This document shows, piece by piece, positions 2,434 to 43,924 of a stretch of DNA of 52,135 nt. The notes beneath the pieces were generated by a model. It was not told the DNA's origin. It ran no database searches and was given only the letters and a program-made list of their open reading frames with translations. The stretch spans positions 1 through 52,135 of the IMG/VR virus record IMGVR_UViG_3300031965_000041; one strand, written 5' to 3'. Positions within the stretch are counted from its first letter, which is position 1, and the number at the start of each line of letters is the position of its first letter. The DNA comes from a virus. Lineage: Duplodnaviria > Caudoviricetes. A program made the translations under genes and the position numbers.

Positions 2434-3419
2434 GGCTTGCTCCTGCTGTAGTCCGCGTGGTGGCGGTTGTAGTCCTTCACGAACCATCCGACGTCGATCC
2501 GAGCCGGATCCTTCCGTGACTGCACGTAGTGATCCCAGACGGCCATGATCCGCTCCTCTGACTGCCCGGCCCGGATGAGAGATGCCACTGTCGGGCCGTG
2601 CACGTCCGCGATCACGTAGGGCACCTTGCGCCGCTTTTGCACAATCCCCGCCATCTTGGGGAGGATCCGGTATGGGTCCTGGAAGCTCCGCGGCTCGAAT
2701 TCCGATTCGCCTGAAACAGGGCCGGCCGGGTTCCCCTTCTCGAGTAGCTCAGTATCCCCGGACGGCTCTGAGGCATGGGCATGGGCATGGGCATGGGGAT
2801 CCGGAAGCTTCCCGGAAGCTTCCGGGAAGCTTCCGGGAAGGGTTTTACCGGATGAATTCCACCGTCCTCCTATTCTTCCCGCAAGTTTCTCGAAGGCTTC
2901 CGAGAGCTTTCCGGGAGCGTTGCTGGGAAATTCGCGGCCATCCCAGTTCATCTTGTTGGGATCGCCGCCTGCTGCTTCGAGCGATGGGGGTACTGGGGTG
3001 GCTCGGCCGAGGGGTCGAAACGAGTTGACGCGCAGGACCTTCTCGCCGCGTTGGCCCACAGGGGCATACCAGGCCGTCCAGTGGCCGTACACGCGCCCGT
3101 GGGCCTCCCACACCTCGAGGAGCGGCCCTGTCGTGGCGTACTGCCAGAGTCGCCAGAGGACGTGTTCCCGAGTCTGTTCTGGGAACATCTCCTCGGCCCG
3201 CGCAACGATAGCCAGGGGATTGATCCGGAAGCAGCCGTGAGCGTCCTCGACGGTGAACCGGAGATCCCAGGGGAACATGACGCGGGCGACGAACGGCAAG
3301 CGCCGGACGGTCTCCGAGGTCTCGATATGGGGGTGGAGATTCACGGTCTGTCCCACGCCCCGCCCCACAGAACCCAACCCAAGTAACTGCCCTCCTCGAT
3401 ACCGTGTCTTTTGTGCCAT
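2430..3419 (-). CDS. Phage replication initiator (lambda O/DnaD-like organisation); may start at GTG 3344
   Basis: N-terminal wHTH-like region (DAHGCFRINPLAI...EVWEAHGRVYGHWTAW), low-complexity linker containing DNA iterons, C-terminal helical domain. Confidence 0.7.
   Translation of the reverse strand: MAQKTRYRGGQLLGLGSVGRGVGQTVNLHPHIETSETVRRLPFVARVMFPWDLRFTVEDAHGCFRINPLAIVARAEEMFPEQTREHVLWRLWQYATTGPLLEVWEAHGRVYGHWTAWYAPVGQRGEKVLRVNSFRPLGRATPVPPSLEAAGGDPNKMNWDGREFPSNAPGKLSEAFEKLAGRIGGRWNSSGKTLPGSFPEASGKLPDPHAHAHAHASEPSGDTELLEKGNPAGPVSGESEFEPRSFQDPYRILPKMAGIVQKRRKVPYVIADVHGPTVASLIRAGQSEERIMAVWDHYVQSRKDPARIDVGWFVKDYNRHHADYSRSKP
2772..2916. repeat. Putative replication origin: palindromic GGAAGCTTCC iterons plus (GGCATG)n
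   Basis: ggaagcttcccggaagcttccgggaagcttccgggaag at ~2803-2840, degenerate copies to 2916, ggcatg x4 from 2772. Confidence 0.65.
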
Positions 3420-3787
3420 CCCTTTGATGCAAGTGGAGCGCCGCGCTGCTCCTCAGCGCCCTGGTTTCTGGGGACCAAGGAACCCCATTCGTTGGTGGGG
3501 GTGCCGCCCGGCGCTAACCCCGCGCATCGCCCAACGGGACGCGCCACACCCCCGTTTTTGTATTGCCGCCGCTCCTACTGCCCTAGGGCCGGGCTCACCA
3601 CTTGGTTCCGGCCCTTCCGGGACGATTCGGTCACGGCGGCAAGATATACGGGAAACTCATCCCACGTCCGGCCATCCAGTACGCGGCCACTCAATCCCCC
3701 TCGGACGACCTCCCGGGAAAGCCCGTGACCTCTCCGGGTAGAGACGCTCTCCGCAGCCGCCCGAGGGGGGCGCTCAATCCACGGCCG

Positions 3788-5290
3788 CTAGGCACGATCG
3801 GTCCCCGCCTGCGACTCGGGCAGCATGAGGACTTCCTGCGCGCACCGCTTTGCCGCGAGATCGCAGTACCGCTCCTCGATCTCGATCCCGATGGCGCGAC
3901 GGTTCAAATCCTTTGCGGCCCGAAGCGTGGTGCCGGACCCCATGAAGGGGTCGAGAACCGTATCGCCTTGGTCAGAGTGGAGCCGCACGAACAACGAAAA
4001 CAACCCCAATGGCTTTGGAGTTGGATGGTCCTCTGCCCTCGGCTTGATTCCCGGAATGCGGATCACGTTTGCTTGAGTATGACCACCATTCCATTTGCAG
4101 GCCGCTCCAGGCTTCTGCGCTACGAGCATCAGCTCGTAATTCCGCCGGTAATGCCACCCCATCCCCAGCCCGGTCGTCGACGACGGGGGTTGGCCGACGT
4201 GCTGTTCGACATGCTCGATGATGCTCTGCCCGATGACGCGCCCGAGGTCGACGGGAACCGCGTTGCCGATCATGCGGCCGAGCGCCTTGAACTGGAGTGT
4301 TTCGTCGTCAGGGACGAAGGAGTAGTCCTTCGGGAAGCCCTGAAGCAGCGCGCCCTCGCGCAGCGAGAGACCACGCGCCTGCGTGGGATGGCCAAAGCGA
4401 CCGTTGCCGAAGCCGTAGAACTGTGTCGTCAGCGTCGGCGCGGGCTCGTCGTACTTCATGCGGCCGTAGACGCCGGGATAGGTCTTGCCCGTCTTCTTCG
4501 TATGGCATTTGGCGATCAGGTGCTTCGGCCAGTCACGCCACGTGCCGCCCGGCTTCGAGACCTGAATGCGCTCGTAGTTCAGGTCGGAGAGGCGGGACGC
4601 GGTGTGCAGGCGATCGTCCTTGTGGGTGCCACCATGCCTGAGGATGGGGAGCCCCTTGATCACGTCCTCGACCGTCCTGGTTTCCGACGCGACGGGCTCG
4701 CGCAGCTTGATCTCGCCGTGGAGCGACGCGAGAAGCACGGTACGGTGGCGGCGCTGCGGGAGGCCGTACTTGGCGCAGTCGATGACGTCGTACCAGACCT
4801 TGTACTTGAGACGCTTCAGCGTCGCGACGAAGTCGTCGAATACCTCGTGCTTCGTCACGGTGGGGACGTTTTCCATCGTGACGATGTCAGGCATCAGCTC
4901 CTCCACCAATCGCCCGAAGTGGTTGAGCAGGCTCCACCGCTCGTCGTCCTCGACGTCCTCCTCCTTCTGGTAGCGGAGGGCGTAGTTCGAGAACGGCTGG
5001 CAGGGCGCGCAGCCGGCGAGAACGCGAACCGTCGCATCGCCGAACCAGGCATCGACCTTCGACGCCTCGAGCTTGGCGACGTCGGCTTGGTGGAACTCGA
5101 TGCCCTCGTGGTTCGCCTCGTACGGGTGCCTGCAGCCCTCGTCGAAGTCGACTCCCGCGACGACCTTCACACCGGCGTCGATGAGTCCGTGGGTGAGCCC
5201 GCCCGCGCCGCAGAACAGATCCACGCACACGACGTCCCGATCGGGCCGCTTGGTCCGTCCGTTCCTCGGTGTACGTGACTTTCTCGCCAT
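3788..5290 (-). CDS. Chimeric DNA methyltransferase: full C5-cytosine MTase (M.HgiDII-like) fused to the C-terminal half of a beta-class N4/N6 MTase
   Basis: RBS GGAGGAG before ATG 5290. C5 motifs DLFCGAGG, GCAPCQPFS, ENV, QRRHR, IGNAVP; then GLGMGWHYRRNYE, HPTPKP, VLDPFMGSGTT, GIEIEERY. Confidence 0.9.
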   Translation of the reverse strand: MARKSRTPRNGRTKRPDRDVVCVDLFCGAGGLTHGLIDAGVKVVAGVDFDEGCRHPYEANHEGIEFHQADVAKLEASKVDAWFGDATVRVLAGCAPCQPFSNYALRYQKEEDVEDDERWSLLNHFGRLVEELMPDIVTMENVPTVTKHEVFDDFVATLKRLKYKVWYDVIDCAKYGLPQRRHRTVLLASLHGEIKLREPVASETRTVEDVIKGLPILRHGGTHKDDRLHTASRLSDLNYERIQVSKPGGTWRDWPKHLIAKCHTKKTGKTYPGVYGRMKYDEPAPTLTTQFYGFGNGRFGHPTQARGLSLREGALLQGFPKDYSFVPDDETLQFKALGRMIGNAVPVDLGRVIGQSIIEHVEQHVGQPPSSTTGLGMGWHYRRNYELMLVAQKPGAACKWNGGHTQANVIRIPGIKPRAEDHPTPKPLGLFSLFVRLHSDQGDTVLDPFMGSGTTLRAAKDLNRRAIGIEIEERYCDLAAKRCAQEVLMLPESQAGTDRA

Positions 5291-5513
5291 CTCCTCCGTT
5301 ACCTCACTCTTCGTCTTGCCGTCGGTCCTCGGCGGCTTTTCCTCGACTTCATCCTTCTCCCCCAATACTGCCCCCCCGGGTGGCCCGGGGCTGATTGTCC
5401 TGCCCACCGTCCGGAGGCACGACCACTCCCCGAGAGTTTCTCGAGGACCACCCGAGGGAGGCCAGCAACAGGCGCGGCACTTCCCCCGAAGCCCACACGA
5501 ACCCGTTGCTGCG

Positions 5514-6335
5514 CTATCCTGCAGGCACCATCTCCTTGGCCACGTGCTCCTCGATCTTCTCTGCCGCGCTCTCGCCCATCTCCTTGTGGCCGCACGAGCA
5601 CTGGTACCCGGCGATCTCCTCGCCCTTGCCCTTGAGGGCCTTTGCTTTGTGCTCGACCTTCGGGGGCGCCCCTTTCGGGGTCTCCTCTTCCTCCTCCTTC
5701 TTGGTCTCTCCCGAATCACCGTTCATGGCCGCCTTCTCCTCCAGTTCGGCGGTGAGGTCCTCGGCGTCCGAGGTAGGCTGCCGCTCCAGCTTCTCGGGAT
5801 CCTCGAACTCTTCGGTGGCGTAGGTGCCCGCGAAGAAGTCTGGGGCGATCATCCGCAAACCCCTGGCCTTGCACCGCGCGGCTAACATGTCCTTCGGATA
5901 CCTCTTCCAAACCTCACCCTTCTTGGCGAGCAATCCGGCGTCCCGCGCCTCCTGGATCGTGAATTCAGCCTCGACGGGATCGAACCCTTCACGGGTGAAC
6001 AGGATCCGGCACACCGTGGACGACCATTCGAGGATCTTCTTCCGGACCCCCAGCCGCTTGGAGGCGATCCCGTCCATCAGGGCGGCCTCCAACACGAGCT
6101 TGCCGTCGAAATAGTGGATTGACGCGAATCCCTGCATGGCAGGCACCCCGAGCTCGTGCGCCTTGAGCATCATGGCGAAGGCGGCGTTGGCGTTCCGTTG
6201 CGGGATGAGACCGCTCGCCGCCAGAGCCTTGGCCATCCGCCACCGAGCATCCATCGTGGCGACCCAGGCCGCCATCGGGTCGTCCGTCGTGGAGACTTCA
6301 TTCCGGCGAGCCGGAATCACGTCGTTGTCAGTCAT
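5514..6335 (-). CDS. RecT-like single-strand annealing protein
   Basis: AMMLKAHELGVPAMQGFASIHYFDGK...FTIQEARDAGL...WKRYPKDMLAARCKARGLR; adjacent to the exonuclease. Confidence 0.8.
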   Translation of the reverse strand: MTDNDVIPARRNEVSTTDDPMAAWVATMDARWRMAKALAASGLIPQRNANAAFAMMLKAHELGVPAMQGFASIHYFDGKLVLEAALMDGIASKRLGVRKKILEWSSTVCRILFTREGFDPVEAEFTIQEARDAGLLAKKGEVWKRYPKDMLAARCKARGLRMIAPDFFAGTYATEEFEDPEKLERQPTSDAEDLTAELEEKAAMNGDSGETKKEEEEETPKGAPPKVEHKAKALKGKGEEIAGYQCSCGHKEMGESAAEKIEEHVAKEMVPAG

Positions 6336-9038: not shown

Positions 9039-9174
9039 CGTGACCCCCCTTGGGAGGAGGTAGCGGGCATGCGGTCCGACCCGCAGGGGCCCGCCACCCC
9101 AGGAATAAGGTGCGCGACCCCGGGACTTCCCCTGCCACGGGTTCGCCCCTGTTCGTGGAGGCCGCGCGGAAAAC

Positions 9175-9441
9175 TCATGCCGCGCCCCTGTCCCTGTCCC
9201 TGTCCAACCAGCTGAGGTCGAAGAAGGACTCGGGGCGCTTCTTGAAGGCTCGACAGGCCCGGTCGATCACGGCAGCCGGTGGGCCGGAGCCGTCCCCGCG
9301 CTTGTACTTGAGGAACCCGGACACGGAGATCCCGAGCTGTGACGCCATCTCTGCGTTGGAGAGCCCCAGGGCAACCTGGAGAGCCGAGAGCCGCTCACCG
9401 AAGACCTGCGCGGCCGGGGACCGCAGTTTCGTCGTTTCCAT
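9175..9441 (-). CDS. Cro/CI-type XRE helix-turn-helix regulator
   Basis: FGERLSALQVALGLSNAEMASQLGISVSGFLKYKRG. Confidence 0.8.
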   Translation of the reverse strand: METTKLRSPAAQVFGERLSALQVALGLSNAEMASQLGISVSGFLKYKRGDGSGPPAAVIDRACRAFKKRPESFFDLSWLDRDRDRGAA

Positions 9442-9497
9442 GTGGGCCATTGTGGGGAGTTTCGTGGACAAAAGCAAGAAAAAATTTCACAAAAATA
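9442..9497 (-). promoter_or_regulatory. Sigma70-like leftward promoter, probably giving a leaderless transcript
   Basis: TTGCTT-17 nt-CACAAT-7 nt-ATG(9441), with an AT-rich upstream tract. Confidence 0.55.
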
Positions 9498-9666
9498 GCG
9501 GCAGGACGTACCGCACCCGGTACCCGTTGTCGTAGAAGGAGATGTATCCGTCGAAGTCGCCGCGCTTCCGCTTCTCGCGGAACGTGGAGTATCCCATACG
9601 GAGGAGACGCGCTGCGGTGCGCATCGGGATCATGTCGGACAGATCGGGAATCTGTGCAGGCGGCAA
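9487..9666 (-). CDS. Small excisionase/MerR-like HTH protein (start TTG 9666 or ATG 9633)
   Basis: Hand-translated: DMIPMRTAARLLRMGYSTFREKRKRGDFDGYISFYDNGYRVRY. Confidence 0.5.
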   Translation of the reverse strand: MPPAQIPDLSDMIPMRTAARLLRMGYSTFREKRKRGDFDGYISFYDNGYRVRYVLPLFL

Positions 9667-9865
9667 GGGAAAATGCCCCGCGGGTGCGGGGCGAGCCGTG
9701 GCAGGGGAAGCAGACGTTACCTCATGGGAGCGGTGTCGTCAAGGTGTTCCCCTGGGTGTCGGAGCGGTCACACCGAAGGGGGCCGGAGTCTATTCCGGAG
9801 GTCTAACGGAGGTCTCCGGTAGCGCCCCCCCCCACGTTCTAACTCGTTGCGGTGTCGCAACCTAC

Positions 9866-9974
9866 AGCCAATGTAAAAAAGCGCCCCCCCCCGTCGATTC
9901 CTCTTGCATCCAGCTGTACACGCTGTATACTCCTGTATGTCGGCAATGGGGCCGGCACCACCCGCGCCTCGGGG
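9866..9974 (+). promoter_or_regulatory. Promoter cassette, copy 1 (109-bp direct repeat)
   Basis: TTGCAT (9904)-16 nt-TATACT (9926), three CTGTA repeats, followed by the RBS gaggcaggag. Confidence 0.8.
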
Positions 9975-9998
9975 GATCTGAGGCAGGAGGATAGAGAG

Positions 9999-10532
9999 AT
10001 GATGACCTACCAGATGTCTCTGGATGGGGGAGCTGGCGGGACAGATGAGGTCTCGGCCGACTCACTGGCCGAGGCGATGAGGGAAGCCCTGGAGTGGGCC
10101 GAAGGTGGCGATTGGTTGATCGCCCAAGAGGGCACGGAGGACGTGTACGGCGGCGCAGCCGCCGTACACGTGCGCGTGTGGAGAGAGGACGAGGACGGGC
10201 GCATGATCGAGGAGGAGACCGGCACCTACGAGATCCCCACTCTCGGGGATCTCAAGGAGGAGACGATGGAAGATGGAGATGTCCTCGCGGAGCGGGAGCA
10301 CGAGTACTCCACCGAGTCCATCGTGCGCGTGGGGGAGGACATCTACCTCCGCCACGAGAACGGAGGCGCGCGTGGCTCGTGGGACCGGCAGGGTGGGGAC
10401 GGGGTGTGGAGAGAGCGCCCCGTGGAGCCGGCCAGGCTCCTCACCACCACCGAGGCGAGGGAGCGCCTTCTGGACTGGGGTTATGCCCCGGCAGAGATCG
10501 CCGACATGACCGAGGAAGGCGGTGCCCGATGA
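9999..10532 (+). CDS. Highly acidic early protein
   Basis: First gene after the promoter; AGGAGG RBS; about a quarter of residues are D/E. Confidence 0.75.
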   Translation: MMTYQMSLDGGAGGTDEVSADSLAEAMREALEWAEGGDWLIAQEGTEDVYGGAAAVHVRVWREDEDGRMIEEETGTYEIPTLGDLKEETMEDGDVLAEREHEYSTESIVRVGEDIYLRHENGGARGSWDRQGGDGVWRERPVEPARLLTTTEARERLLDWGYAPAEIADMTEEGGAR

Positions 10533-27304: not shown

Positions 27305-27440
27305 TCATTCCTCGCGATGGCAGCATTGGCCCACATCACCGACTCTTCCAGCTTGGTGATGGCCAAGGACTTCTCCCGGCTCTCCGGGCACAAGCTGTTG
27401 ATGAGGTCGGCGAACTCCAGAGCCTTTCGGCGTTGGTCAT
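27301..27440 (-). pseudogene. Frameshifted Acb2/Tad1-like (nucleotide-signal sponge) gene
   Basis: RBS GGAGG plus ATG 27440 (MTNAE) is out of frame with KALEFADLINSLCPESREKSLAITKLEESVMWANAAIARNE. Confidence 0.65.
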
Positions 27441-28228
27441 GGCACCCTCCTGCAAAACGCGTACATGTCCTTGCCGCGGCGCTCGGCAAGGTTCTGCCTC
27501 TGTCCCATCTCGACGGGATCCAACCCTGCCCCGCGCAAGAGTCCGGACCATCCGCCCGTCCACGTCCGCCGCGCCGAATGCACCGGCGTTGTTGCCGCCA
27601 CAGTTACCGGTAGGCGATCCAATCGCTTCGCCGCGCGGTGCAGCCCAGGATCGGAGAACCCCATCTCGAAGTCGGTGACGCGCTCCTGATTCCAGAGACT
27701 CGGACCCCGCTTGGGGATGGTGAGCACGAACACGGATCCCTCCGGGAGTAGACCGGAGATTCCCGCCAACACGCGCTGGGGCTCAGGGATGAACTGGAGC
27801 ACGTTCCGCGCTAGGATGAGGTCGTACCAGCCCACGGACTCGCGCTCGATCTTGAGCCACTCCACCAGGGCCTCCACGGTGTCCTTGATCTGGACGATCC
27901 GGGCGCCTGGGTACTGCTCCCGGCAGCGCGCGACGTGCTCCGGTAGGATCTCTACGCCAGTCATGTCCGACTCGGCCACGTGAAGTTCCCGGCGCAAAAA
28001 CTCGAACGAGTATCCGAGTCCGAAGCCGATGTCGAGGAACCGACAAGGCCGGTGCCCGTCCTCGATGTAGCGTCCGAGAAACCGGGTAACGGCGGTATGG
28101 AGCAGGTTGCCGGTGGCGACCCACTCGGAATGGGTCCAGACCTGGCGGAACTTGGCGTTGGACTGGAGCATCCCCTTCCAGGACTCCCAGGCTTCGCGGT
28201 TCGGCTGCAGGAGGTGCAGGAGGTTCAT
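27437..28228 (-). CDS. Class I SAM-dependent methyltransferase
   Basis: FLDIGFGLG, GVEI, YDLILARNVLQFI. Confidence 0.85.
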   Translation of the reverse strand: MNLLHLLQPNREAWESWKGMLQSNAKFRQVWTHSEWVATGNLLHTAVTRFLGRYIEDGHRPCRFLDIGFGLGYSFEFLRRELHVAESDMTGVEILPEHVARCREQYPGARIVQIKDTVEALVEWLKIERESVGWYDLILARNVLQFIPEPQRVLAGISGLLPEGSVFVLTIPKRGPSLWNQERVTDFEMGFSDPGLHRAAKRLDRLPVTVAATTPVHSARRTWTGGWSGLLRGAGLDPVEMGQRQNLAERRGKDMYAFCRRVP

Positions 28229-29604
28229 CGTGCCTCCACCCGGTGCCGGCTCGGGTTGATGATCGAGGTCTTCCGCTCCTCGTAGCCGCGGTGCGACCAC
28301 ATCAGATCATCCAGCCAGCCCAACTCCCGCAGCGCATCAACCACCTGCTGAAACGCCCGCTCCCAGGACCATTGCTTGTGCACGAGCGCCGATGCGCGGA
28401 GACCCATGTCCTTCACAGCCTCACGGTGCTTGTACGCGAACAGCATCCGCTCCATCAGCTCGCCGATGTCGACCTGAGCATCCTCGCCGAGATCGCTCTG
28501 CGTGGTGAGATACTCGCCAAACTCGGCGTCCACTGGGTCGGCTCCGCGACCGCACACCGGCGCGCGCCGCGCCTGTTGGTCGAAGAACGACGGCCCCATC
28601 ACGGGCGTCAATCCGAGGTAGTTCCCGTCCATCGTCTCCAGGTAGTCCATCGGCCCCGAGTACTCCGTCTGGATGGTCGGCAACCCCGTGGCCATGTGCT
28701 CCAGAGGAATCATCCCGAACCCCTCTGCCCGGTACGGATTCACGGACACGTCGGAGTTGAGGAGAATCGCCCTCATGTCGTCGGGTGAGAACTTGGCCCC
28801 GTAGGTGTCAATCAAGGTGCCGTCGAGCGGGTAGTTGCTGATCTCCCAACGCTTGTTGAATACCGTGGTCCACTTGAGGATCAGCCTGGCGTCGTCCTTG
28901 ATCTCTCCCGACTCCCGTAAGCGAAGGAACGCCTCGCGTACCAGCAGCGCCTGCTTCCGGTCGCCCTCGGAAGACCGGACGCTCCGCGCCGCAATGGCCG
29001 CTTCCGAGTAAGGATCCTTCCCCACAGCCATGAACCACGGAGGTACATTTGTACCGACCGGCACCTCCACCGCGGGGGGCACCACGGGCTCGTCCAGGGT
29101 CATCGGGTAGATGGGGCCGGGGGACATGCCCTGCCAGAGAAAGGTGAACGTATCCCTGTGGGGGCGCCAGATCGGCGGGAACGCTCCCGGGTCCACTCCG
29201 TGATGCACGACGAAGATGGGCACGGTGACGCCGTCGTCGATGAAGTTCTGCTTGCTCCACTCCGAGGTTGTGAAGCATGCATCGAATTCGTTGATGGCCT
29301 CGACCCACGACACCGGGAGGCGCGATGCCTCCCAGGTCGTGTAGACGATGGCTCGATCTGCTTGCCGTTCCCAGATGGTAGGCTCGAGGTGGCGGAACAG
29401 CGGTGCGTGGGCGACCTGCACGAAGTCGACACCCACAGGGGGCGGGCCGCAGTTGCGCACGCCCATGCCCCCTCTTCGCAGGATGGCGCACAACTGCTTG
29501 CGGACGCGGTTGTAGCCCGTGTGCTCGATGTCTGGCGGGTCCCGATAGACCCGCTTCCCATCCACCGTCTTATAGCCGCCCGTGAACCACAGCCCAAACA
29601 TCAT
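28225..29604 (-). CDS. GT-B (GT4-like) glycosyltransferase
   Basis: YTTWEASRLP, TTSEW, VVHHGVD, PYRAEGFGMIPLEHMATGLP. Confidence 0.9.
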   Translation of the reverse strand: MMFGLWFTGGYKTVDGKRVYRDPPDIEHTGYNRVRKQLCAILRRGGMGVRNCGPPPVGVDFVQVAHAPLFRHLEPTIWERQADRAIVYTTWEASRLPVSWVEAINEFDACFTTSEWSKQNFIDDGVTVPIFVVHHGVDPGAFPPIWRPHRDTFTFLWQGMSPGPIYPMTLDEPVVPPAVEVPVGTNVPPWFMAVGKDPYSEAAIAARSVRSSEGDRKQALLVREAFLRLRESGEIKDDARLILKWTTVFNKRWEISNYPLDGTLIDTYGAKFSPDDMRAILLNSDVSVNPYRAEGFGMIPLEHMATGLPTIQTEYSGPMDYLETMDGNYLGLTPVMGPSFFDQQARRAPVCGRGADPVDAEFGEYLTTQSDLGEDAQVDIGELMERMLFAYKHREAVKDMGLRASALVHKQWSWERAFQQVVDALRELGWLDDLMWSHRGYEERKTSIINPSRHRVEAR

Positions 29605-35888: not shown

Positions 35889-36374
35889 TTAGTCGTCCGA
35901 GGGGATGAGGAGGTACCAGGAGTAGCTACTGGTATCCACGGTCGCCTTCTGATTGGTGACCACCACCTCGAGGGATACGGCGAGATTCGCGAGTGAGGTG
36001 GTCCCGTGGTTGGTCTCGGCGGCGTAGGAGGTGTCGGTGCGGGCGATGGTGCGCACGGATCCGGAAGTCTGAGCCGCAGGGACGTAGTGCGCCCAGATCT
36101 GGGTCTGGACGGTATCGCCGGTGCCGATGGAGAAGGACACCAACTGCGTGGGCAGGTTGATGTCGTTGTCCTCGTCGAGGAACGGCACGTCCCGAAGCAT
36201 GAACGAGGCGGAGTCGGCTGCGCCGTTGGTGATGCCGGTTGCGGTGATCTTCCACCGCTTCACGTCGCCGAGGTGATCGGGTGTCACGGTGACCGCGGCG
36301 AGCAGCGGCGAAATGCAGAATGCGACCGCCAAAGCGATCGCACAGACAGACAGAACGGGTCGGAAGACCTTCAT
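35889..36374 (-). CDS. Signal-peptide protein directly upstream of the capsid gene
   Basis: MKVFRPVLSVCAIALAVAFCISPLLA; GGAGGAGG RBS. Confidence 0.75.
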   Translation of the reverse strand: MKVFRPVLSVCAIALAVAFCISPLLAAVTVTPDHLGDVKRWKITATGITNGAADSASFMLRDVPFLDEDNDINLPTQLVSFSIGTGDTVQTQIWAHYVPAAQTSGSVRTIARTDTSYAAETNHGTTSLANLAVSLEVVVTNQKATVDTSSYSWYLLIPSDD

Positions 36375-36442
36375 CACTTCCCCTCCTCCACACACACACG
36401 GTCCCCACGTTCGTACTATCTAATACCAACTCCAGCGGAATT

Positions 36443-36715
36443 TTATTCCACGATTTTTTGTAGGCGGCGGACCGCCACCCCATTTCCCGTCCCGTTCCTC
36501 CCGTCACGGGCGGCCCGCCACACGACGTACACCGGTCGTTTGAAGTCTTCAGCCCGACGAAACATCGGCGTGTCGTCCTCCTCCGCCAAGGCGCGGCGGA
36601 TTGCCGCGATCTCGGCCAGAGTGCACCCCAGAGCGATCAGATCCCGGAGCGTGTACTCGATGTCCTCCTGGTCGACGTTCAGGTCGTACTCCAGGCGGAC
36701 GGCAAATCCTGTCAC
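36443..36715 (-). CDS. Hypothetical protein
   Basis: GTGA coupling. Confidence 0.5.
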   Translation of the reverse strand: MTGFAVRLEYDLNVDQEDIEYTLRDLIALGCTLAEIAAIRRALAEEDDTPMFRRAEDFKRPVYVVWRAARDGRNGTGNGVAVRRLQKIVE

Positions 36716-36927
36716 GTCAATCCGAGCTTCCCGAGGTAGTCCTGCTCCTCAGACGGCATGCAACGGATCCGCCGGCGCACAACCGGCACCTCGAGATCCA
36801 GCGCCGCGGCGATCTCGCCGACAGACTTCGCGCCCGCAACCACGGCCTCGGCATAGGCGCGGAAGTTCCCGGATCCCCAATCGGGAGCCCGGAGTCGTTT
36901 CTTGGTTCGTTTCTTGGCCTCAGCCAT
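36712..36927 (-). CDS. Small HTH-like protein
   Basis: KSVGEIAAALDLEVPVVRRRI; AGGAGG RBS. Confidence 0.55.
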   Translation of the reverse strand: MAEAKKRTKKRLRAPDWGSGNFRAYAEAVVAGAKSVGEIAAALDLEVPVVRRRIRCMPSEEQDYLGKLGLT

Positions 36928-37708
36928 GGTCTGCCTCCTGGTAAGTGAAGTCCTGTGATCCAGATACGGGGCGCACAAGCTCCATGCCCCCGTAGACCCG
37001 GCGGGACCACGCCGGGTCGCACATCCCCACATGCCCGATGTGGATCGCCCGGTTGGCCAGGCTGGATAGACACCGTAGACCGGGGTTGGCGTCCATGTAC
37101 CGCGTCATGGCATGCTCACCCACCTGACCCGTGAAGTTGGGCTCGAGATGCGTCTCCCAGGCGCCCCGGGAGTACATCATGCCCTCCATGTGGAATCGTT
37201 CCCCGGTCTGCCGGGCTGTAACGGCGTCGTCCCCTCGGCTCGTGGTGATAACCTCGGGGCGGGAGTTGTCCGGACTGTAGGTCAGCGGCCACAGTCCGAG
37301 GTAGTCGTCCCGGTCAGGCCGGCCGGCGTACCACTCCAGAAGGGCAAAGATGTCGCTGGAGAGGACAACGTCATCCGCGACTCGGAGGAACACTTCCGCC
37401 GCGCCCCTGCACGCGCTCTCCATCGTTGCGCGAATGTTCGGCACCGGACCCATCCGGTGTGTGTGGCAGTGGACGGCCAACCCGCGGTATAACCAGGCTG
37501 CATCGTTTTCCAGGCTTTCGAGCGTGCGGAGAAAGTACTCTATATCGGATTGATCCCTGCCGTAGTCGATCCCGCAGTACAGGGTCATCGGCCCGGGGTA
37601 CGGGTAGTGGGACCACGCCGTTTCTAGGCTTTCGAGCGTGCGTAGGAGATACTCTCCCCGCGGCCCCCGCGCCCGGTGGGCGGTCATGATGATCGCTGCC
37701 GGGGTCAC
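36920..37708 (-). CDS. GT-A fold glycosyltransferase-like protein
   Basis: IMTAHR..EYLLRTLESL, FLRVADDVVLSSD, NRAIHIG. Confidence 0.75.
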   Translation of the reverse strand: MTPAAIIMTAHRARGPRGEYLLRTLESLETAWSHYPYPGPMTLYCGIDYGRDQSDIEYFLRTLESLENDAAWLYRGLAVHCHTHRMGPVPNIRATMESACRGAAEVFLRVADDVVLSSDIFALLEWYAGRPDRDDYLGLWPLTYSPDNSRPEVITTSRGDDAVTARQTGERFHMEGMMYSRGAWETHLEPNFTGQVGEHAMTRYMDANPGLRCLSSLANRAIHIGHVGMCDPAWSRRVYGGMELVRPVSGSQDFTYQEADHG

Positions 37709-37899
37709 TTGGGCTCCTCGTGCTCCGGGCGATGTGCCAAAGGTGGCATCCAGTGAATGCAACGCACTCGGTTCCATGGTTCGGGAATATTCTTTTCCGT
37801 GGACAGGCGCAGTTCGGGAGTCTCCCGGTCTCTCTCTCGGCGCCGGCGTTCGGCCTCCTCCAGTTTGCACATGGCGAAGTATCGAGCGTCGAGCTTCAC
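37705..37899 (-). CDS. Small hypothetical protein
   Basis: GTGA-coupled at both ends. Confidence 0.45.
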   Translation of the reverse strand: MKLDARYFAMCKLEEAERRRRERDRETPELRLSTEKNIPEPWNRVRCIHWMPPLAHRPEHEEPK

Positions 37900-39041
37900 G
37901 AACCACCTCCCAGGCCGAAGATCGTTTCCCCGTTTGCCTCCACCACCTCCCGGAACGCAGCCACTCCGCGCTCCAGCGACAGGCTCCCCAGCAGCGCCGG
38001 ACTCCCGACCGCGTCGCCGCGCAGCTCCATCAGGGCCGCAAACTGGCCCGGGGGCATGAGCACGGACGTCGTGTAGCACAGGTCCTGGGGGTGCCCCGGG
38101 GGAAGCTGATCCGGCGGATAGACGCCCGCACCGAGTTCGTAGTCGTCGGTGGAGGACCACACGTCACACACGTCTTCGAACGGGTGGCTATTACTCAGAT
38201 TCCACTGCATCCCATTCACCACAGGGAACGGCACCAATCGCTGAAGGCCCATGACGTTGATCTGGTGCGCGGCCTTCTGGGCGTGGAAGATCTCCGTCCT
38301 CGCCACCCGGAGATGCGTGTAGCTCGTGGTGTTGCGCGCCGAGTAGACACCTGCCCTGCGACTGCGCGAGATCCGATTCCTCAGCCGTCGCGGAGCGTTG
38401 GCCCGGTTCCATTCGCGGAGCGTGTCCTCCTGGGGCACGAGTACGTGCTCCAGGTCCTTGGCGATGTCCACAACGTCGTCACCCCGCAGCAGCCCCGTTC
38501 TCACGATGCCGGACACCTGGGAGTTGGCGAGCTGAGCGTTCGTCCACACCGCCTGGGACAGCTCCAACCCGCTCCCGAGGGTGGTCTGCATGAGGTTCTC
38601 CGCCACCACCTTGCCGACGTAGTGGACGGGCACGGCATTGAACAGCGCGGTCTGGACCTTCCTTGGCAAGTCCGAGGCAACGGCCTTGAGCAGCTCGCGT
38701 TCCCGAAGCATGGTCAGTTCGGCCGAGTCCACCAGGGACGTCTGCATGTATCCCTGGAACGCCCGGGCGAGATCGGTCGTGGCCGATGCGATGATCTGGG
38801 CAATCTCCGCATCGGTAACGGCCGGGTTGGCAAACACGCCGGCCGCGGTGAGTTCGCCCACAACGGCCTTGTGGTACGTCGCGAGGATCCGGACCAGGTC
38901 CTCGGAGGCGTGCCGGTTGAGCAAGAGGAACTGCTCCCGGAAGTCGTCGATGATGGCGTCGGTGCGCTCCGTGAAGGTCCGTTTCTTGCGGGTCTCTTCG
39001 AGGTGCAGGCGCGACGCCTCAATGTCAGCCACCCAGGTCAT
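37896..39041 (-). CDS. MuF-like minor head protein
   Basis: RVARTEI, WNLSNSHP..DVCD, PPGHPQDLC. Confidence 0.8.
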   Translation of the reverse strand: MTWVADIEASRLHLEETRKKRTFTERTDAIIDDFREQFLLLNRHASEDLVRILATYHKAVVGELTAAGVFANPAVTDAEIAQIIASATTDLARAFQGYMQTSLVDSAELTMLRERELLKAVASDLPRKVQTALFNAVPVHYVGKVVAENLMQTTLGSGLELSQAVWTNAQLANSQVSGIVRTGLLRGDDVVDIAKDLEHVLVPQEDTLREWNRANAPRRLRNRISRSRRAGVYSARNTTSYTHLRVARTEIFHAQKAAHQINVMGLQRLVPFPVVNGMQWNLSNSHPFEDVCDVWSSTDDYELGAGVYPPDQLPPGHPQDLCYTTSVLMPPGQFAALMELRGDAVGSPALLGSLSLERGVAAFREVVEANGETIFGLGGGS

Positions 39042-39802
39042 GTACCCCACCCAACACGAGCTTCTTGCGCCGCCAGAACGGCCGCATCCCACCCAACCCT
39101 AGCTTCTTGCGCCGCCAACACGGCCGCATCGTATTGCCCTAGTATGGCGGTAGCATCGGTATCCCACAGGCGCACCCACTCCATGTCCTGCTGGCCCAGC
39201 ATCGGTCCGAACTCCACCCCGCAGTTGCGGCAGAACTTGTCCTCCGCGTCCACGATGGTGCCGCATCCTCCCGGTGCCGCCGTGGCGGTTAGGGACTCAA
39301 GGTCGAGGTGCCGCGCAACACCGAAATCGATGAGCCAGAACTCATCTTGCAGGTCCACGATGATGTTCGCGGGCTTCACGTCGCGGTGAACGATGCTCAC
39401 GGCTTCGGCAGCGACCAAGGTCTCGGAGACGTGCAGCGCAAGTCGCAGGAGTTCATGGTGCGAGAGCGTGCCAGCTTGGATTCGAGCGCTCAAGACCTCG
39501 CTGGGGATCCGCTGCTCACGAAACCAGACGATCGTCCCGGTGTTGCCGGTGAGCTGCCCGCGCTCGAAGATGCGCGGCATCCGTGCAGCCCGGACCTTCG
39601 TCGCTGCCTCCAGCTCCCTCTCTGTTCGCGCCGGATCTGTCCCCGGGTGCATCAGCTTGACGACGACCTCGCCGTCAGTCGCGTGCCTCGCGGCGAAGAC
39701 CTGCTTCTGACCTCCCGACGCAAGCGCCTGGAGGTCAGTGAGGTCCGGCAACTGGCGTGCGAGCCAGACGGGGTCTACTTGGGAGTAGCTGGGCATCGCC
39801 AC
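39038..39802 (-). CDS. Truncated Hanks-type Ser/Thr kinase fused to a phage zinc-ribbon protein C-terminus
   Basis: ASGGQKQV, VVVK, HRDVKPAN and DFG are present; APE and the C-lobe are replaced by CGTIVDAEDKFCRNCG. Confidence 0.85.
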   Translation of the reverse strand: MAMPSYSQVDPVWLARQLPDLTDLQALASGGQKQVFAARHATDGEVVVKLMHPGTDPARTERELEAATKVRAARMPRIFERGQLTGNTGTIVWFREQRIPSEVLSARIQAGTLSHHELLRLALHVSETLVAAEAVSIVHRDVKPANIIVDLQDEFWLIDFGVARHLDLESLTATAAPGGCGTIVDAEDKFCRNCGVEFGPMLGQQDMEWVRLWDTDATAILGQYDAAVLAAQEARVGWDAAVLAAQEARVGWGT

Positions 39803-40515
39803 GATCCTTGCTCACTTGGGTTCTTCGAGGCGCGCCATGCCAGGTCATTTACGACCCACGAGGCGTACGAGCGCGGCAGGCGGGCGGTGGACGCGTCCCA
39901 CTCCCTAATCCCATCTTGCTCCGGGGAGAGCACCCCAATGCCGAATCGTCGCGCATCCCGCACTTGATTCTCGGAAACCTGAGGCACGAGGACGTAGGAC
40001 TTCGATGCGAACCAGGTGTTCAGCCGTGCCTGGTTGAGCACCTTGGTCCACTTTCCGATCTTGGCCTCGACGGCAATGATCTTGGTGGCCGCGAAGGCGC
40101 GCTCGAAGGCACACGGGAACCACGCGCGACCGGCCGGTCGAACGAGCCCGGCGTCGTGCAGGCGTTCGGTCGAGGATCGCGCGAAGCGGGAGCCAAAACA
40201 GCCCTCAAGTTCGGAGTGGGCGGCTCTACGACGCTGGAAGACGTAGTGCATGAGCCGCAAGTCGTCCGGTACGAGCGCCAGACGCGATTCGCCCCAGTCG
40301 GCGGTGCGAGCGTCGCGCCACACAACGATGACGAGATCGGGGAACCCGGTCTCAAGGCCGGGCTCGCGGAGCACCGTTACCCGACTGTCCGGGGCATGGA
40401 CGAGTGGCATGGCGGGGATGAACCGCTCCACGAGTTCCAGTTCGGGCCCCGGCAGAGTTCTTCGAAAGACGACACCCTCCGGCGCCGAGTCCCGGTCAAC
40501 GATCGTCGGGGTCAC
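39775..40515 (-). CDS. PD-(D/E)xK nuclease-fold protein (MmcB/sce7726-like)
   Basis: GFPDLV...IAVEAK...LNQARLN...SYV...FGIGVL. Confidence 0.75.
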   Translation of the reverse strand: MTPTIVDRDSAPEGVVFRRTLPGPELELVERFIPAMPLVHAPDSRVTVLREPGLETGFPDLVIVVWRDARTADWGESRLALVPDDLRLMHYVFQRRRAAHSELEGCFGSRFARSSTERLHDAGLVRPAGRAWFPCAFERAFAATKIIAVEAKIGKWTKVLNQARLNTWFASKSYVLVPQVSENQVRDARRFGIGVLSPEQDGIREWDASTARLPRSYASWVVNDLAWRASKNPSEQGSWRCPATPK

Positions 40516-41978
40516 GGTGGAGTCCCGTTCAGCCGGCCCTCCGGGTTCGCGCGCTGCGTCTCCCCAGCCTTCGCTCGGGCATCCCGCAGCGCCTGAATCT
40601 CCTCGCCAAGACGGTCACCGCCGTCAAACGAGTCTTCGTACTCCCGGTTCTCGCGCTCGTCCTCGGGGTCGTATCCCGCCTCCTGCAAGATCGTCGTGTC
40701 CGAAAGACCGTGACCCGAGAGCAAGCTGTTCGCCCGCACGATATCCAGGAACTCCCGCTCGTCGTTCTCCGTCCACATCGTCCGGAACGGGTAGTCCGCC
40801 GGGTTGTAGCCCCAGAGCCACAACTGCGTCTTCACTACTTTGGAGATCGGCTCCGAGGCAACGGAGTGGAACTCCCCCAACAGGCGGATGAACTGCTTCA
40901 CTTGTTCCCGCAACGTGTCCCGGTTCACGTCGGCGCCGTAACCCGGCAACAGGGCATAGGGCACCCCGAGAGCCGAATGAATCGTGGCCCGGCGGTACTT
41001 CAAGTCGTCGATCTTCATCAGGGCATGGTTCGCCGGGTCCAGCAGCTTCACATCCGTGGTGGCCGCAACATCCGAGTCCGGACCAACCTCACCCTTGCGC
41101 TTCATTTGATCGTAGAGCTGCATGAACTCCAGGGCCTGCGATACCGTCCACGCCTTGTTCACGAAGGCGAGCCTGGAACCGCTCCGCTTGTCGCGGAACA
41201 CAAACAGGCCCTCCTCCCCCTGGTACAACTGGCGCCACTGGACCCGAACCGGCATGGCCATCGGAAGCCCCATGTTCCAATCGAATACCAGGAGCTGATA
41301 CGGCAAGAACTCACGGACTCGCTCCGATGTCTGAATGTCGAACAGGCCCCAGCCTACAAACGCGTTGTCGCCTGACCGGTGCAGCTTCCGCAGGATGTAC
41401 CCGTCCCGGATGGACGGCACCGGCTCGAACCGCTCGATGGTGCCCTCGCCCTTCATGTCCCAGACAATCTCAAGAGCGTGCCGTCCGTACAGCGCGGTTC
41501 GCTCGAAGTGATTAGCCAGAACCCGGTGCAGCCCGGCGTTGAAAAGCGTAGTCTCGATTCGGTCGTAGACCTCGTTCACGGCCTGCTGTTGTGGGGTCGC
41601 CATGCACCGCTGACTGCCATCAGGACGCTTCTTCACCACAGTGGCGTTCTCGAGCTTCTTCCGACCGGACAGCTTGAAGGCGATGCCCTCGTTGTCCTTC
41701 TGTGCGGCAGAGAGCCCCAGAATCCGGAACGCGGAAGCGACGTCGCCGTCGTTGTCGTACATCTCCTGCACGTCCTGGAGCATCTCGATGTAGTCGAATT
41801 GCCGCGTGACCTCTCGCCACTGACCGGACACGTCGGAGATCGGATACAGGGGGTCGGGCTGGGTTGTGACGGCGGGCGCTCGGGTGGGGCGGATCTCTTC
41901 CACCCGCCGGGCGATCCGGCGAATCACGGCGTTCTCGATGGCCCGCGCGGGCCGCACGATGGGGCTCCAGAAGCTCAT
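40512..41978 (-). CDS. Portal protein
   Basis: Follows the terminase; YGRHALEIVW, IHSALGVPYALL. Confidence 0.85.
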   Translation of the reverse strand: MSFWSPIVRPARAIENAVIRRIARRVEEIRPTRAPAVTTQPDPLYPISDVSGQWREVTRQFDYIEMLQDVQEMYDNDGDVASAFRILGLSAAQKDNEGIAFKLSGRKKLENATVVKKRPDGSQRCMATPQQQAVNEVYDRIETTLFNAGLHRVLANHFERTALYGRHALEIVWDMKGEGTIERFEPVPSIRDGYILRKLHRSGDNAFVGWGLFDIQTSERVREFLPYQLLVFDWNMGLPMAMPVRVQWRQLYQGEEGLFVFRDKRSGSRLAFVNKAWTVSQALEFMQLYDQMKRKGEVGPDSDVAATTDVKLLDPANHALMKIDDLKYRRATIHSALGVPYALLPGYGADVNRDTLREQVKQFIRLLGEFHSVASEPISKVVKTQLWLWGYNPADYPFRTMWTENDEREFLDIVRANSLLSGHGLSDTTILQEAGYDPEDERENREYEDSFDGGDRLGEEIQALRDARAKAGETQRANPEGRLNGTPP

Positions 41979-43924
41979 GGCCTCTCCTTCTCCCCACGTT
42001 TCAGCTTGCTCAGCGACGATTCCCGGTTCGAGATCGCGGATACCATGACGGCCGGTTCGGCGGCCGCGTCCAATAGTTCCGCAGCGATGAAGTCGTAGTT
42101 GTCCGCATGGCGGTAGTCGTCCCTCTTTTGCTTCCGCCACACGTGCCGCTTGTTGCCCTTCGTGTCCTCCTCCTCGACCTTCTTGAGATCGCACATCTCC
42201 TCGTAGTACTCGGGGATCATGGAGGCATTGCGGGGCAGGTGATTCAAGCCGACCCGCATCTCGGCATGCGAACGGTCGAGCGTCCGGTTCCGCTGGGCCA
42301 GGACGAACCGCTCCGACCGGCGAATGTCCAGCAGGTCCTTGCTCGGGTTGTCCTGGGCGGGATAGTCGGCCAGCCAAAGAAAGGGGAACCGCTCCTGCAT
42401 CTCCTTGGCTTTCGATGTCTCGGGTTCGGAGTCCATCACCGCTACCGTGACGGGGAAGCGCTCGAATAGCTCGTCCAGGCCCTCCCACGGTACGCGACCG
42501 ATGAACACCGCCTGGCGTACCCGGTCTCCGTCCCGCCGCAGAATCCGGGAGATCCGGACGGCGAGATACCGCCGCTGCACGTCGATCCCGGCGGTCAACA
42601 CTCCGCCCGTCATCTTCGCCGGCATGAGGTAGGCGCCCTGGCAGGCGCTCAGCATCTCCGGGTCCAGCCCGGAGCTCCTGGGCGTGTAGCCTAGCCCGAG
42701 ATCACCGTTGTAGAAGACCCGGAGCTTGTCGTCGTCGCCGGTCCGGATCGCCCGGTCGAAGATCTTCCACAGGTCCCGCACCGTGGTCCGGTTGGTCACG
42801 AGCCGGGTCAGATGGTATCCGTAGACCTCTCGCTCAGGGTATGCCGGCACCCACAGACCCGGCCCCAAACGGTCGAGTGGCCGGTCACACTCCCGGCACA
42901 GCACCGCAATGTCTCTACCCGAATCCTCGCTCCACGCCCGGTCCCGGAGCGTGAACCGGATCTCCGACTCCTGCACCACCACATCGCGGAACCAGTCGAG
43001 GTCCTGCCGGTTTCCGCAGTGTCCGCACTGCACGAACCAGGAGCGCTGGTCCGACTCCTCGTAAGCCTCCTCGATCAGATCCCCGACCGTGGTTGGTCGC
43101 GAAATCTTCCGAATACGCTTGTAGTCACTGGCGTTGAGCCGCTTGTATATCTCGTCCAGCCACGAAGAGTCGAACAGGCTGAACTCGTCCAGACACACGA
43201 TGTCCGCCGGCGTTGCTTGGCGGGACAGCGGGCTCTTGGCCCCCTTGGCGTGCCACCACCCTTGGCCGATTCGCTTCTGATGGACACGCGCGACCTTGCG
43301 GGCGTGCCCGTGCCGGTCGTCGTATACCCGGGAGCGCAGGGGCGGAGACGCGTTGATGACCGGGTCCACGCGCTCCTGGACCATCTTCGCAACCTCTTCA
43401 TCGGTCGGAAAATAGTAGATCGCGCTGCGGCCATGGGCGTCGGCCTCGTACAGCGACCCCCCGACCATCCACTCCGTCTTCGCCACCTGGTTCGGGAACT
43501 TCAAGACGATCTCTTGCGCCTCGTCCCACACCTCGTATGGCTCCACCATGAAGCCGTACCCGTTGAGGGACAGCGGCTTACCCTTGATGGTGTGGAAGTG
43601 CATCGCCCAGTCCAGGTAGGTCCAATCCAAGGCGACGGTCTCGGCGCTCAACTGAATCGCCTCAAGCGGGTCAAAGAGAGGGGCGGGTCGAGCGGGACCC
43701 TGTGTTCTCGTTGAGGCTTCTGCAGCCCAGATACCAGTGTCCCTACGGACTGCCCGCTCGTTGCCCGCCTCACCCAAGGCCCCCGGGCACGCGCTTGCCG
43801 TAACGGCGCCGGCGAAGCTCGCGCAGACCAACCACCACCCCGTCAGGATGCTTCGACGCTGCTTCGAGGTCCTCCAGCGAGACCGCGTTGGATGTATCCT
43901 CATGGCGCTCCGTTGGGCCGCCAC
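41975..43924 (-). CDS. Terminase large subunit, GpA-like (true start likely between 43600 and 43780)
   Basis: KFPNQVAKTE, VCLDE, ISRPT, SDQRSWFVQCGHCG, AGIDVQ, DDYRHA. Confidence 0.9.
   Translation of the reverse strand: MAAQRSAMRIHPTRSRWRTSKQRRSILTGWWLVCASFAGAVTASACPGALGEAGNERAVRRDTGIWAAEASTRTQGPARPAPLFDPLEAIQLSAETVALDWTYLDWAMHFHTIKGKPLSLNGYGFMVEPYEVWDEAQEIVLKFPNQVAKTEWMVGGSLYEADAHGRSAIYYFPTDEEVAKMVQERVDPVINASPPLRSRVYDDRHGHARKVARVHQKRIGQGWWHAKGAKSPLSRQATPADIVCLDEFSLFDSSWLDEIYKRLNASDYKRIRKISRPTTVGDLIEEAYEESDQRSWFVQCGHCGNRQDLDWFRDVVVQESEIRFTLRDRAWSEDSGRDIAVLCRECDRPLDRLGPGLWVPAYPEREVYGYHLTRLVTNRTTVRDLWKIFDRAIRTGDDDKLRVFYNGDLGLGYTPRSSGLDPEMLSACQGAYLMPAKMTGGVLTAGIDVQRRYLAVRISRILRRDGDRVRQAVFIGRVPWEGLDELFERFPVTVAVMDSEPETSKAKEMQERFPFLWLADYPAQDNPSKDLLDIRRSERFVLAQRNRTLDRSHAEMRVGLNHLPRNASMIPEYYEEMCDLKKVEEEDTKGNKRHVWRKQKRDDYRHADNYDFIAAELLDAAAEPAVMVSAISNRESSLSKLKRGEKERP

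Follow-up and report, generated by a model that had tools for sequence, protein, structure and literature searches.

Evidence for the capture of part of a three-gene bacterial cassette between the portal and MuF genes of an uncultured tailed phage

We describe here a module of apparent bacterial origin in the head operon of an uncultured tailed phage, which was found in soil and sediment and is represented by the IMG/VR virus record IMGVR_UViG_3300031965_000041 (52,135 bp, rated 57% complete), the whole of which is called the window in the following. The module lies between the genes for the portal and the MuF-like head morphogenesis protein and consists of one complete gene, referred to as ORF246 (an open reading frame, ORF, of 246 aa) and predicted to encode a nuclease-fold protein, and of a truncated Ser/Thr kinase gene that runs on into phage sequence. 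Phage morons, the extra genes that lie between conserved late genes, classically bring their own promoter and terminator. The present insert resembles a moron in being foreign DNA between the head genes of a syntenic module and in being absent from relatives, but it differs from the classical ones in having neither promoter nor terminator (no promoter- or terminator-like sites were found in window 38800-40800), in being wired into the operon by stop/start overlaps and in yielding a chimeric protein. A precedent of another kind is phage TE, which is reported to have escaped the ToxIN system by recombination with the toxI antitoxin locus and thereby to have acquired ToxI repeats (PMC5086642). 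The two cases are alike in that a phage takes from a host or plasmid conflict locus, by recombination, only the part that could neutralise it, and keeps this part thereafter. They are however unlike in that the donor of phage TE is a proven abortive-infection toxin-antitoxin locus and the captured RNA antitoxin is of proven effect, whereas the module of the window is protein-coding and has a candidate role only.

The individual genes of the donor, which is a cassette of three genes, likewise have described counterparts. The donor kinase is of the Hanks type, as is the single-gene Ser/Thr kinase defence PD-T4-6, and the full-length kinase of one aligned donor locus (L003) matches the PADLOC PD-T4-6 model PDLC04042 at 2e-40 (profile positions 15-271 of 292), but the donor kinase is always found within the three-gene cassette (20/20) and not as a stand-alone gene, and the window copy matches only partially (2.5e-23), covering the first ~175 profile positions. 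The third donor gene, which is absent from the phage, is predicted to share the TIM barrel of tRNA-guanine transglycosylase (TGT) with two members of the TGT superfamily that act in defence, DpdA, a DNA preQ0 insertase, and Cap10 of the cyclic-oligonucleotide-based antiphage signaling system (CBASS), but has no sequence-level match to the TGT family. CapK and CapS, in turn, are described as a kinase-repressor pair encoded upstream of immune operons, CapK being an anti-sigma-factor-type kinase and CapS a STAS-domain protein (PMC13373217). The donor cassette is reminiscent of this arrangement in that genes for a kinase and for a DNA-binding partner directly precede that of an effector, but the donor kinase is Hanks-type and its partner combines a nuclease fold with a winged helix, so that the family is a different one. 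We also considered a system related to bacteriophage exclusion (BREX) that includes a TGT (PMC12839542) as a possible description of the trio and rejected it, since its components differ. A literature search for the gene trio found no description, supplementary lists of candidate systems lying outside the search, and the three-gene cassette is apparently undescribed.

The captured segment and its donor cassette

Alignment of the window DNA to three bacterial loci (L003, L004 and L007) reveals donor homology that starts at 40523, 8 nt upstream of the ORF246 GTG, and stops at 39253, and we regard it as very probable that the phage gained these 1,271 bp of a three-gene bacterial cassette between portal and MuF by illegitimate recombination. 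The segment contains an 8 nt leader, the whole of cassette gene 1 and codons 1-181 of the ~287-aa kinase gene 2, in good agreement with the original prediction, made from the sequence alone, that about 1.25 kb had been captured from a bacterial operon. At the protein level gene 1 is 96% and the kinase 92% identical to L003, and the ORF246 GTG is at the start codon position used in many homologues. The G+C content is no marker of the insert, amounting to 65.1% in the insert and 63.5% in the window. The features of the region, all on the minus strand, are as follows.

39253-40523: captured segment, 1,271 bp, delimited by DNA alignment to L003, L004 and L007, boundaries good to about 2 nt
39775-40515: ORF246 (cassette gene 1), 246 aa, complete, with a predicted restriction-endonuclease-like fold and inserted winged helix; D60 and E150-x-K152 conserved
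39038-39796 (from ATG, 252 aa) or 39038-39802 (from GTG 39802, 254 aa): chimeric kinase-tail ORF
39253-39796: kinase-derived part of the chimeric ORF, with N-lobe, HRD catalytic loop and DFG and without the APE motif and the rest of the C-lobe, from Pkinase profile match and alignment
39038-39252: phage-derived tail of the chimeric ORF, 71 residues, with the half zinc-ribbon-like motif KFCRNCG; its stop overlaps the MuF ATG
39046-39130: tandem duplication of 42 nt (2.0 copies, 90% matches) at the 3' end of the chimeric ORF, shortly before the MuF start; DAAVLAAQEARVGW is encoded two times
40512-41978: portal, 488 aa, N-terminus MSFWSPIV, weak match to a portal PHROG (phrog_9232, 5.5e-06)
41975-43924: TerL, Pfam GpA_ATPase 2.4e-26 and GpA_nuclease 2.2e-13, phrog_675 1e-69
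37896-39041: MuF-like head morphogenesis protein, 381 aa, phrog_1657 5.7e-34

The module is joined to its surroundings by overlapping codons throughout. The TerL TGA overlaps the portal ATG (ATGA), the ORF246 start GTG (40515-40513) overlaps the portal TGA (40514-40512; GTGA), the end of gene 1 and the start of the kinase ORF overlap by 22-28 nt, and the kinase ORF TGA (39040-39038) overlaps the MuF ATG (39041-39039; ATGA). Since both junctions are in frame, TerL, portal, gene 1, kinase stub and MuF form an unbroken chain of stop/start overlaps. The overlaps at the two ends of the module were recognised when it was first noticed and are indeed present, but the accompanying notion that both couplings were preserved can be upheld only in so far as both exist: the last three codons of the portal gene (TPP) and its TGA stop lie within donor DNA, and the overlap of portal and gene 1 was therefore made by the capture event and not preserved through it. 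As a separate observation, the overlap chain of the head operon (37896-43924) probably explains the survival of in-frame insertions only at this site.

At the other end of the segment, the window kinase is in register with its full-length relatives up to GGCGTI and then diverges, the DNA junction being 39253|39252, close to the switch that had been placed at GGCGT (~39266). The stub matches Pfam Pkinase (PF00069) at 2.8e-12 over profile positions 4-152 of 263, as compared to 4-256 for the full-length relative in L003, and the initial description of a kinase with HRD and DFG motifs that lacks its C-lobe is thus accurate. K49, the ATP-binding lysine, and E63, the alpha-C glutamate, are invariant in all 16 aligned kinase sequences, the catalytic motifs HRDVKPAN and DFG are found at residues 139-146 and 159-161, respectively, and GYAPxEQ and all downstream kinase sequence are replaced by unrelated sequence. 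As the substrate-binding half is missing, including the APE motif, the P+1 loop and the C-lobe helices (F to I) that scaffold the active site, the stub, which retains the ATP-binding lobe, is probably catalytically dead. A complex prediction for ORF246 and kinase residues 1-180 gave a score of 0.00, which is no verdict and constitutes evidence neither way.

The donor cassette itself emerged from a bacterial scan with one genome per species, in which 17 of 33 pattern matches encode a relative, corresponding to 16 distinct loci (L003-L018) from Planctomycetota, Gemmatimonadota, Chromatiales, Thioalkalivibrio, Desulfosarcina, Acidobacteriota and others. The gene order is gene 1 (nuclease fold and winged helix), a Hanks-type Ser/Thr kinase and gene 3 (TGT-like TIM barrel); the kinase gene follows the gene-1 homologue with an overlap in 16/16 loci and is complete (285-306 aa) in 15 of them, and a third gene of ~400-450 aa follows the kinase in all 16. 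In the remaining locus, L011 from a Terriglobia metagenome-assembled genome, the kinase is split by a ~1.2-kb insertion (9114-10322) with a 402-aa ORF that looks transposase-like by eye. The full trio is also present on three IMG/VR contigs (L020, L021 and L050) and on a mobilizable Bacillus mycoides plasmid (L048), where the three proteins show 28%, 34% and 30% identity, are annotated as hypothetical, Ser/Thr kinase and hypothetical, and adjoin a recombinase and an integrase. The cassette accordingly ranges from Bacillota to Planctomycetota, and in each of the 20 complete cassettes examined the kinase gene is flanked by gene 1 and gene 3, so that the donor is not the pair of a kinase and a nuclease-fold protein originally supposed but a three-gene cassette with a TGT-like third gene. 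The flanks are not conserved among the 16 bacterial loci.

The complete cassettes on the three IMG/VR contigs could be taken to mean that a complete cassette was once cargo of the phage and that the 3' end of the kinase gene was afterwards deleted together with gene 3 and neighbouring DNA, which would result in an identical 3' junction. A complete cassette was however seen in no copy of this phage, the donor-type contigs described below are unlike the phage to either side of the module, and the complete IMG/VR cassettes are only 42-59% identical to the window module, all of which makes a deletion derivative very improbable.

ORF246 matches no Pfam, PHROG, PADLOC or NCBIfam model and nothing among GenBank phages, and genes 1 and 3, when searched as profiles against PDB sequences, gave chance-level rows only. 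The family is nevertheless strongly conserved, with 340 proteins at E <= 0.001 among 2,469 candidates and 80-97% identity across several phyla. An AlphaFold 2 model of ORF246 (predicted local distance difference test, pLDDT, 89) has a restriction-endonuclease-like core into which a winged helix is inserted (residues 80-139), and its structural matches include SPO1766 (3dnx; Z 9.9 over 131 aa), the nuclease domain of PaqCI (Z 9.6 over 134 aa) and NucS (Z 8.6 over 97 aa), these Z values being moderate and many MarR-type winged helices matching as well. Foldseek alone is weak, with a best E-value of 6e-3, and a search of the ESM Atlas returned unnamed clusters only, the nearest named one being MmcB-like (0.76), a mere lead. 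D60 (in PDLVIVVW) and E150-A-K152 (in IAVEAK) are invariant in 23/23 aligned homologues, their position on the strands of the model having been judged by eye. The structural matches together with the invariant D60 and E150-x-K152 make the nuclease-fold assignment of this modelled protein reasonably supported, in line with the PD-(D/E)xK fold proposed at the outset.

Gene 3 has no match in Pfam, NCBIfam or PADLOC, none among PDB sequences by profile and none to TGT families by sequence. Its model has a pLDDT of only 70.5, but the closest Foldseek match is a TGT (E 2e-4), and the structural Z values (VIA) are 17.8 for archaeosine TGT (307 aa), 16.2 for bacterial TGT and 14.2 for a third TGT-family chain, as compared to about 12-13 for generic TIM barrels, 13.1 for Cap10 and 12.4 for DpdA, and the predicted fold of gene 3 is that of a TGT-type TIM barrel.

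The surroundings of the cassette give some indication of its role. Among 125 ORFs within 4.5 kb of the 16 bacterial cassettes, given here as raw counts with no background control, defence domains (ThsB_TIR, HEPN, NACHT, Cap15, GmrSD and DruA) occur in 6/16 neighbourhoods, toxin-antitoxin genes in three further loci and transposases or integrases in 9/16; only the neighbourhood of L009 has no defence, toxin-antitoxin or mobile genes. The L021 cassette is found near a weakly matching BrxC/D-like ATPase. The full-length kinase also matches the NCBIfam models MAD6 and PglW, in both cases far under the cut-offs, and these matches, as well as those to the PD-T4-6 models, are what is to be expected of a generic Hanks kinase. 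Since the association with defence and mobile genes comes without a control, it confers candidate status only, and the cassette may be regarded as a candidate defence or conflict system, nothing firmer. The original designation of the donor as a host defence operon is plausible but unproven, given that genes 1 and 3 match no PADLOC model and that the PD-T4-6 match of the kinase is generic.

Junctions, relatives and a second capture

The recognition of a foreign segment inside an operon known from metagenomes raises the question of whether its junctions are artefacts of assembly, a notion that might draw on the facts that a donor-type cassette co-occurs in the same samples and that contigs are interrupted at the junctions. 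When the contigs of four non-source runs (X3, X4, X8 and X9) are aligned to window 38000-41500, the 3' junction and the MuF start are bridged with 0 mismatches in two of the four, namely in X3 (sediment, 2020) by 549 nt (38858-39406) and in X9 (soil, 2025) by 152 nt (39178-39329). The 5' junction is bridged by none among the matches listed (32 contig pieces of the four runs, 365 further pieces lying beyond the listing), and is backed by exact-protein look-ups, which place the donor-ended 488-aa portal on two contigs and a 150-aa C-terminal piece of it on one more. The exact 252-aa chimeric protein is likewise found on three contigs and a 180-aa piece containing the junction on two more, one other contig being 46,070 bp long. 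Both junctions are in frame, beyond the 1.27 kb the sequence is again that of the same phage, and the assemblies with the junction-bearing proteins carry three source labels (JGI/IMG, ENA and Logan). As the junctions thus occur in independent assemblies and runs, they are not an assembly artefact, and the possibility of a chimera is effectively refuted.

The same contigs show where the segment may have come from. Module-like contigs with 0-2 mismatches over 533-661 nt stop matching exactly at 39253 (X4 record 9 and X8 record 20) or exactly at 40523 (X4 record 13 and X8 record 22), and beyond these points run on for 34-98 letters unlike the phage, from which it follows that a near-identical donor-type cassette coexists in these habitats. 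At the protein level, donor-type P0277 differs from the window ORF246 in 2/246 aligned residues. P0277 and P0278 (JGI, 334 aa) are donor-type gene-1 ORFs called with an 88-aa N-terminal extension and a source name of XRE-family helix-turn-helix regulator, and this XRE-type extension may point to a fusion in that subclade or to a fourth gene, regulatory and located upstream.

Parts of the stretch occur in 24 runs from 21 studies; two of these runs are flagged as possible sources, and several of the studies may share one campaign. Beside the MuF protein of the window there are three strain variants (P0289-P0291) that differ by 1-3 residues, and the phage population has two gene-1 alleles; every copy seen, across strain variants and runs dated 2019, 2020 and 2025, retains the insert and its open frames.

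The layout of the site before capture can be approached through relatives of the phage. One relative with 48% identity emerged from an exhaustive HMMER search with TerL, the next reaching 33-37%, and this relative occurs in three IMG/VR loci (L023-L025) with the same gene order, TerL-portal-MuF, and with portal and MuF proteins 38% and 47% identical to those of the window. The cassette genes have no match in these three loci. In L024 the portal has 486 aa, as compared to 488 aa in the window, and the MuF homology starts about 200 nt after the portal stop. Since the relatives have a spacer of ~200 nt and no insert, the module is an insertion relative to the layout of the family, and the portal lost hardly any of its length.

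The phage-derived tail of the chimeric ORF, at 215 nt, about equals the portal-MuF spacer of the relatives in length. Its first residues after GGCGTI, VDAEDKFCRNCG, align with Pfam Zn_ribbon_3 in its second half only (profile 8-25 of 26), at 21.3 bits, under the 27-bit cut-off, and where zinc ribbons of the PF13248/PF13240 type have two CxxC knuckles, the tail has a single CxxC (C192 and C195) and a distant kinase-derived Cys. The tail frame is the sole frame open throughout and is coding-like in its G+C by codon position (0.73/0.49/0.70), but a word-based protein search with a 78-aa tail found no homologue among proteins of 42-137 aa, and L024 has no zinc-ribbon ORF between portal and MuF. 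The proposal that a small zinc-ribbon phage gene was the target of the insertion thus finds no backing in homologues of the tail or in the nearest relatives. An ancestral small ORF at the insertion site is favoured by the coding-like frame and the ATGA coupling and is left unproven by the lack of a homologue and of a first zinc knuckle.

Closer relatives were sought by several routes. Single-protein scans with MuF and portal found no close relative in viral contigs or metagenome contigs, nor did a portal homologue emerge from a word-based protein search. An exact 22-nt pattern taken from the 3' end of the portal gene was absent from viral contigs, and its one match in metagenome contigs (L019) is an unrelated locus. 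Of the 22 viral-contig loci matched by a degenerate pattern for the kinase motif GGQKQVF, none encodes a relative, and the 90% portal cluster (2 members on 3 contigs) comprises junction-bearing forms only. X4 record 15 (713 nt) matches the portal at 40523-41108 and then continues with 127 letters unlike the window, and could represent an insert-free or differently filled site.

A second phage has taken up DNA from the same cassette family. A scan of IMG/VR with the gene-1 alignment gave 40 pattern matches and three relatives, two being complete cassettes and the third a phage contig of 8,427 bp (L022) with the following features.

3222-4535: TerL
4578-4829: 83-aa ORF, corresponding only to the last ~68 residues of a gene-1 protein and sharing 49% identity with ORF246 residues 165-230
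Within the 4536-5958 region, after the 83-aa ORF: small ORF with CxxC...CxxC, then a MuF-like gene (phrog_324, 8.5e-45)

The captured 217 bp of this contig are 99% identical to the gene-1 3' end in L021, with unrelated sequence on both sides, and its TerL and MuF have no detectable relation to those of the window. Two unrelated phages hence hold recent partial pieces of two different members of the cassette family. Both pieces lie in the head module near MuF and both are open frames, while partial copies were found in 0/20 of the other cassette instances examined.

The 83-aa ORF has also a bearing on whether gene 1 by itself is what serves the phage, that is, as an active PD-(D/E)xK endonuclease used late in infection against host or competitor DNA or superinfecting phages, the kinase stub being irrelevant. 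The invariance of D60 and E150-x-K152 in 23/23 homologues, the match of the fold to nuclease domains and the fact that gene 1 is the only complete captured gene speak for such a function. The fragment in L022 however has no catalytic residues, an unregulated nuclease in a late operon would endanger the phage's own DNA, and gene 1 is never alone in 20/20 contexts other than head modules (16 bacterial loci, three IMG/VR contigs and one plasmid), which suggests that it needs, or is controlled by, its partners. On balance a beneficial phage nuclease seems rather improbable.

Possible roles of the captured genes

The reading we favour is one of counter-defence. Gene 1 and the chimeric stub would be translated late in infection by way of translational coupling, and the partial cassette made by the phage would interfere with the complete cassette of the host, either as an antidote or as a dominant-negative subunit. 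The payload would be gene 1, perhaps chiefly its most conserved C-terminal ~70 residues, and the stub may be tolerated or even helpful since it carries the reading frame on into MuF. The roles suggested at the outset, of a decoy for the truncated kinase and of an antidote or late nuclease for its intact partner, are candidate ones. That a partial copy of the cassette serves in counter-defence is our best guess, and a tentative one that stands about level with the view that the module is a neutral passenger. The explanation as a whole, comprising capture, late coupled expression and counter-defence, is in our estimate plausible but still short of an even chance.

According to the neutral-passenger view the capture was the same but brought no benefit, and the module persists because its junctions keep portal and MuF expressed and because there has been too little time for decay, which we consider a genuine possibility although not the expected outcome. 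It accords with the near-identity of the donor-type sequence, with breakpoints that fall inside genes, with the lack of an own promoter or terminator, with uninformative dN/dS ratios and with the presence of other apparent add-on genes in the late region of the phage (27437-29604). It is less easily reconciled with the insert being intact in every copy over the dated runs and the strain variants of the phage, with the absence of an insert-free portal variant from the 90% cluster, and with the retention in the second phage of an open 83-aa ORF that derives from the same gene family.

Several further points weigh against counter-defence. The donor cassette is not demonstrated as a defence system, its genes 1 and 3 matching nothing in PADLOC, Pfam or NCBIfam, and the conserved D...ExK makes gene 1 look more like an active nuclease than like a passive antidote. 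The positions of the breakpoints seem arbitrary, being mid-kinase in the window and mid-gene-1 in L022, as would result from random illegitimate recombination filtered for viability. Gene boundaries in head operons are furthermore generally permissive for insertions, and two captures are too few to show selection. A near-identical phage without the insert was not found by the scans of viral and metagenome contigs or in the portal cluster. The substitution counts, finally, carry no signal of post-capture selection and the readings of function cannot be separated by them: there are nine window-specific codon changes in gene 1 (two of them non-synonymous) and five in the stub (0 non-synonymous), and dN/dS against L003 is 0.14 and 0.21, respectively, similar to donor-donor values.

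A more far-reaching version of counter-defence is that phages repeatedly capture the gene-1 end of an undescribed three-gene immune cassette and express it from head operons as an antidote or dominant-negative, and we consider this unlikely on present data. If it were so, the C-terminal ~70 residues of gene 1 that the two captured pieces share, with the invariant LPRSYASW, might constitute the minimal natural inhibitor, a suggestion that we would likewise rate as doubtful.

Some other features of the window deserve mention. Two more candidates for add-on genes lie amid the tail genes at 27437-29604, one ORF being methyltransferase-like (1e-07) and the other glycosyltransferase-like (phrog_2170, 2.7e-23), and a large DNA methyltransferase is encoded at 3788-5719 (phrog_116, 1.9e-79). 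The plus strand of 36000-42100 has long antisense ORFs opposite the real head genes, for example 37638-39389 (583 aa); these are the usual by-product of a high G+C content, and a crude ORF picker weighted by the G+C of third codon positions preferred them to the true genes.

Natural cases in which a phage is caught just after taking up part of a host conflict system are rare, and in the present case a near-identical donor occurs in the same environments, the two junctions are placed to within about 2 nt and the insert has persisted over years. If the captured part acts against the cassette, it would be a new anti-defence protein, a natural experiment on which part of the system suffices to block it, and a pointer to an uncharacterised three-gene system that ranges from Bacillota to Planctomycetota, and if such captures do recur they would flag both a new defence system and its weak spot. 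Should the module prove neutral, the locus still shows the limits that translational coupling sets on the insertions which can survive in a head operon.

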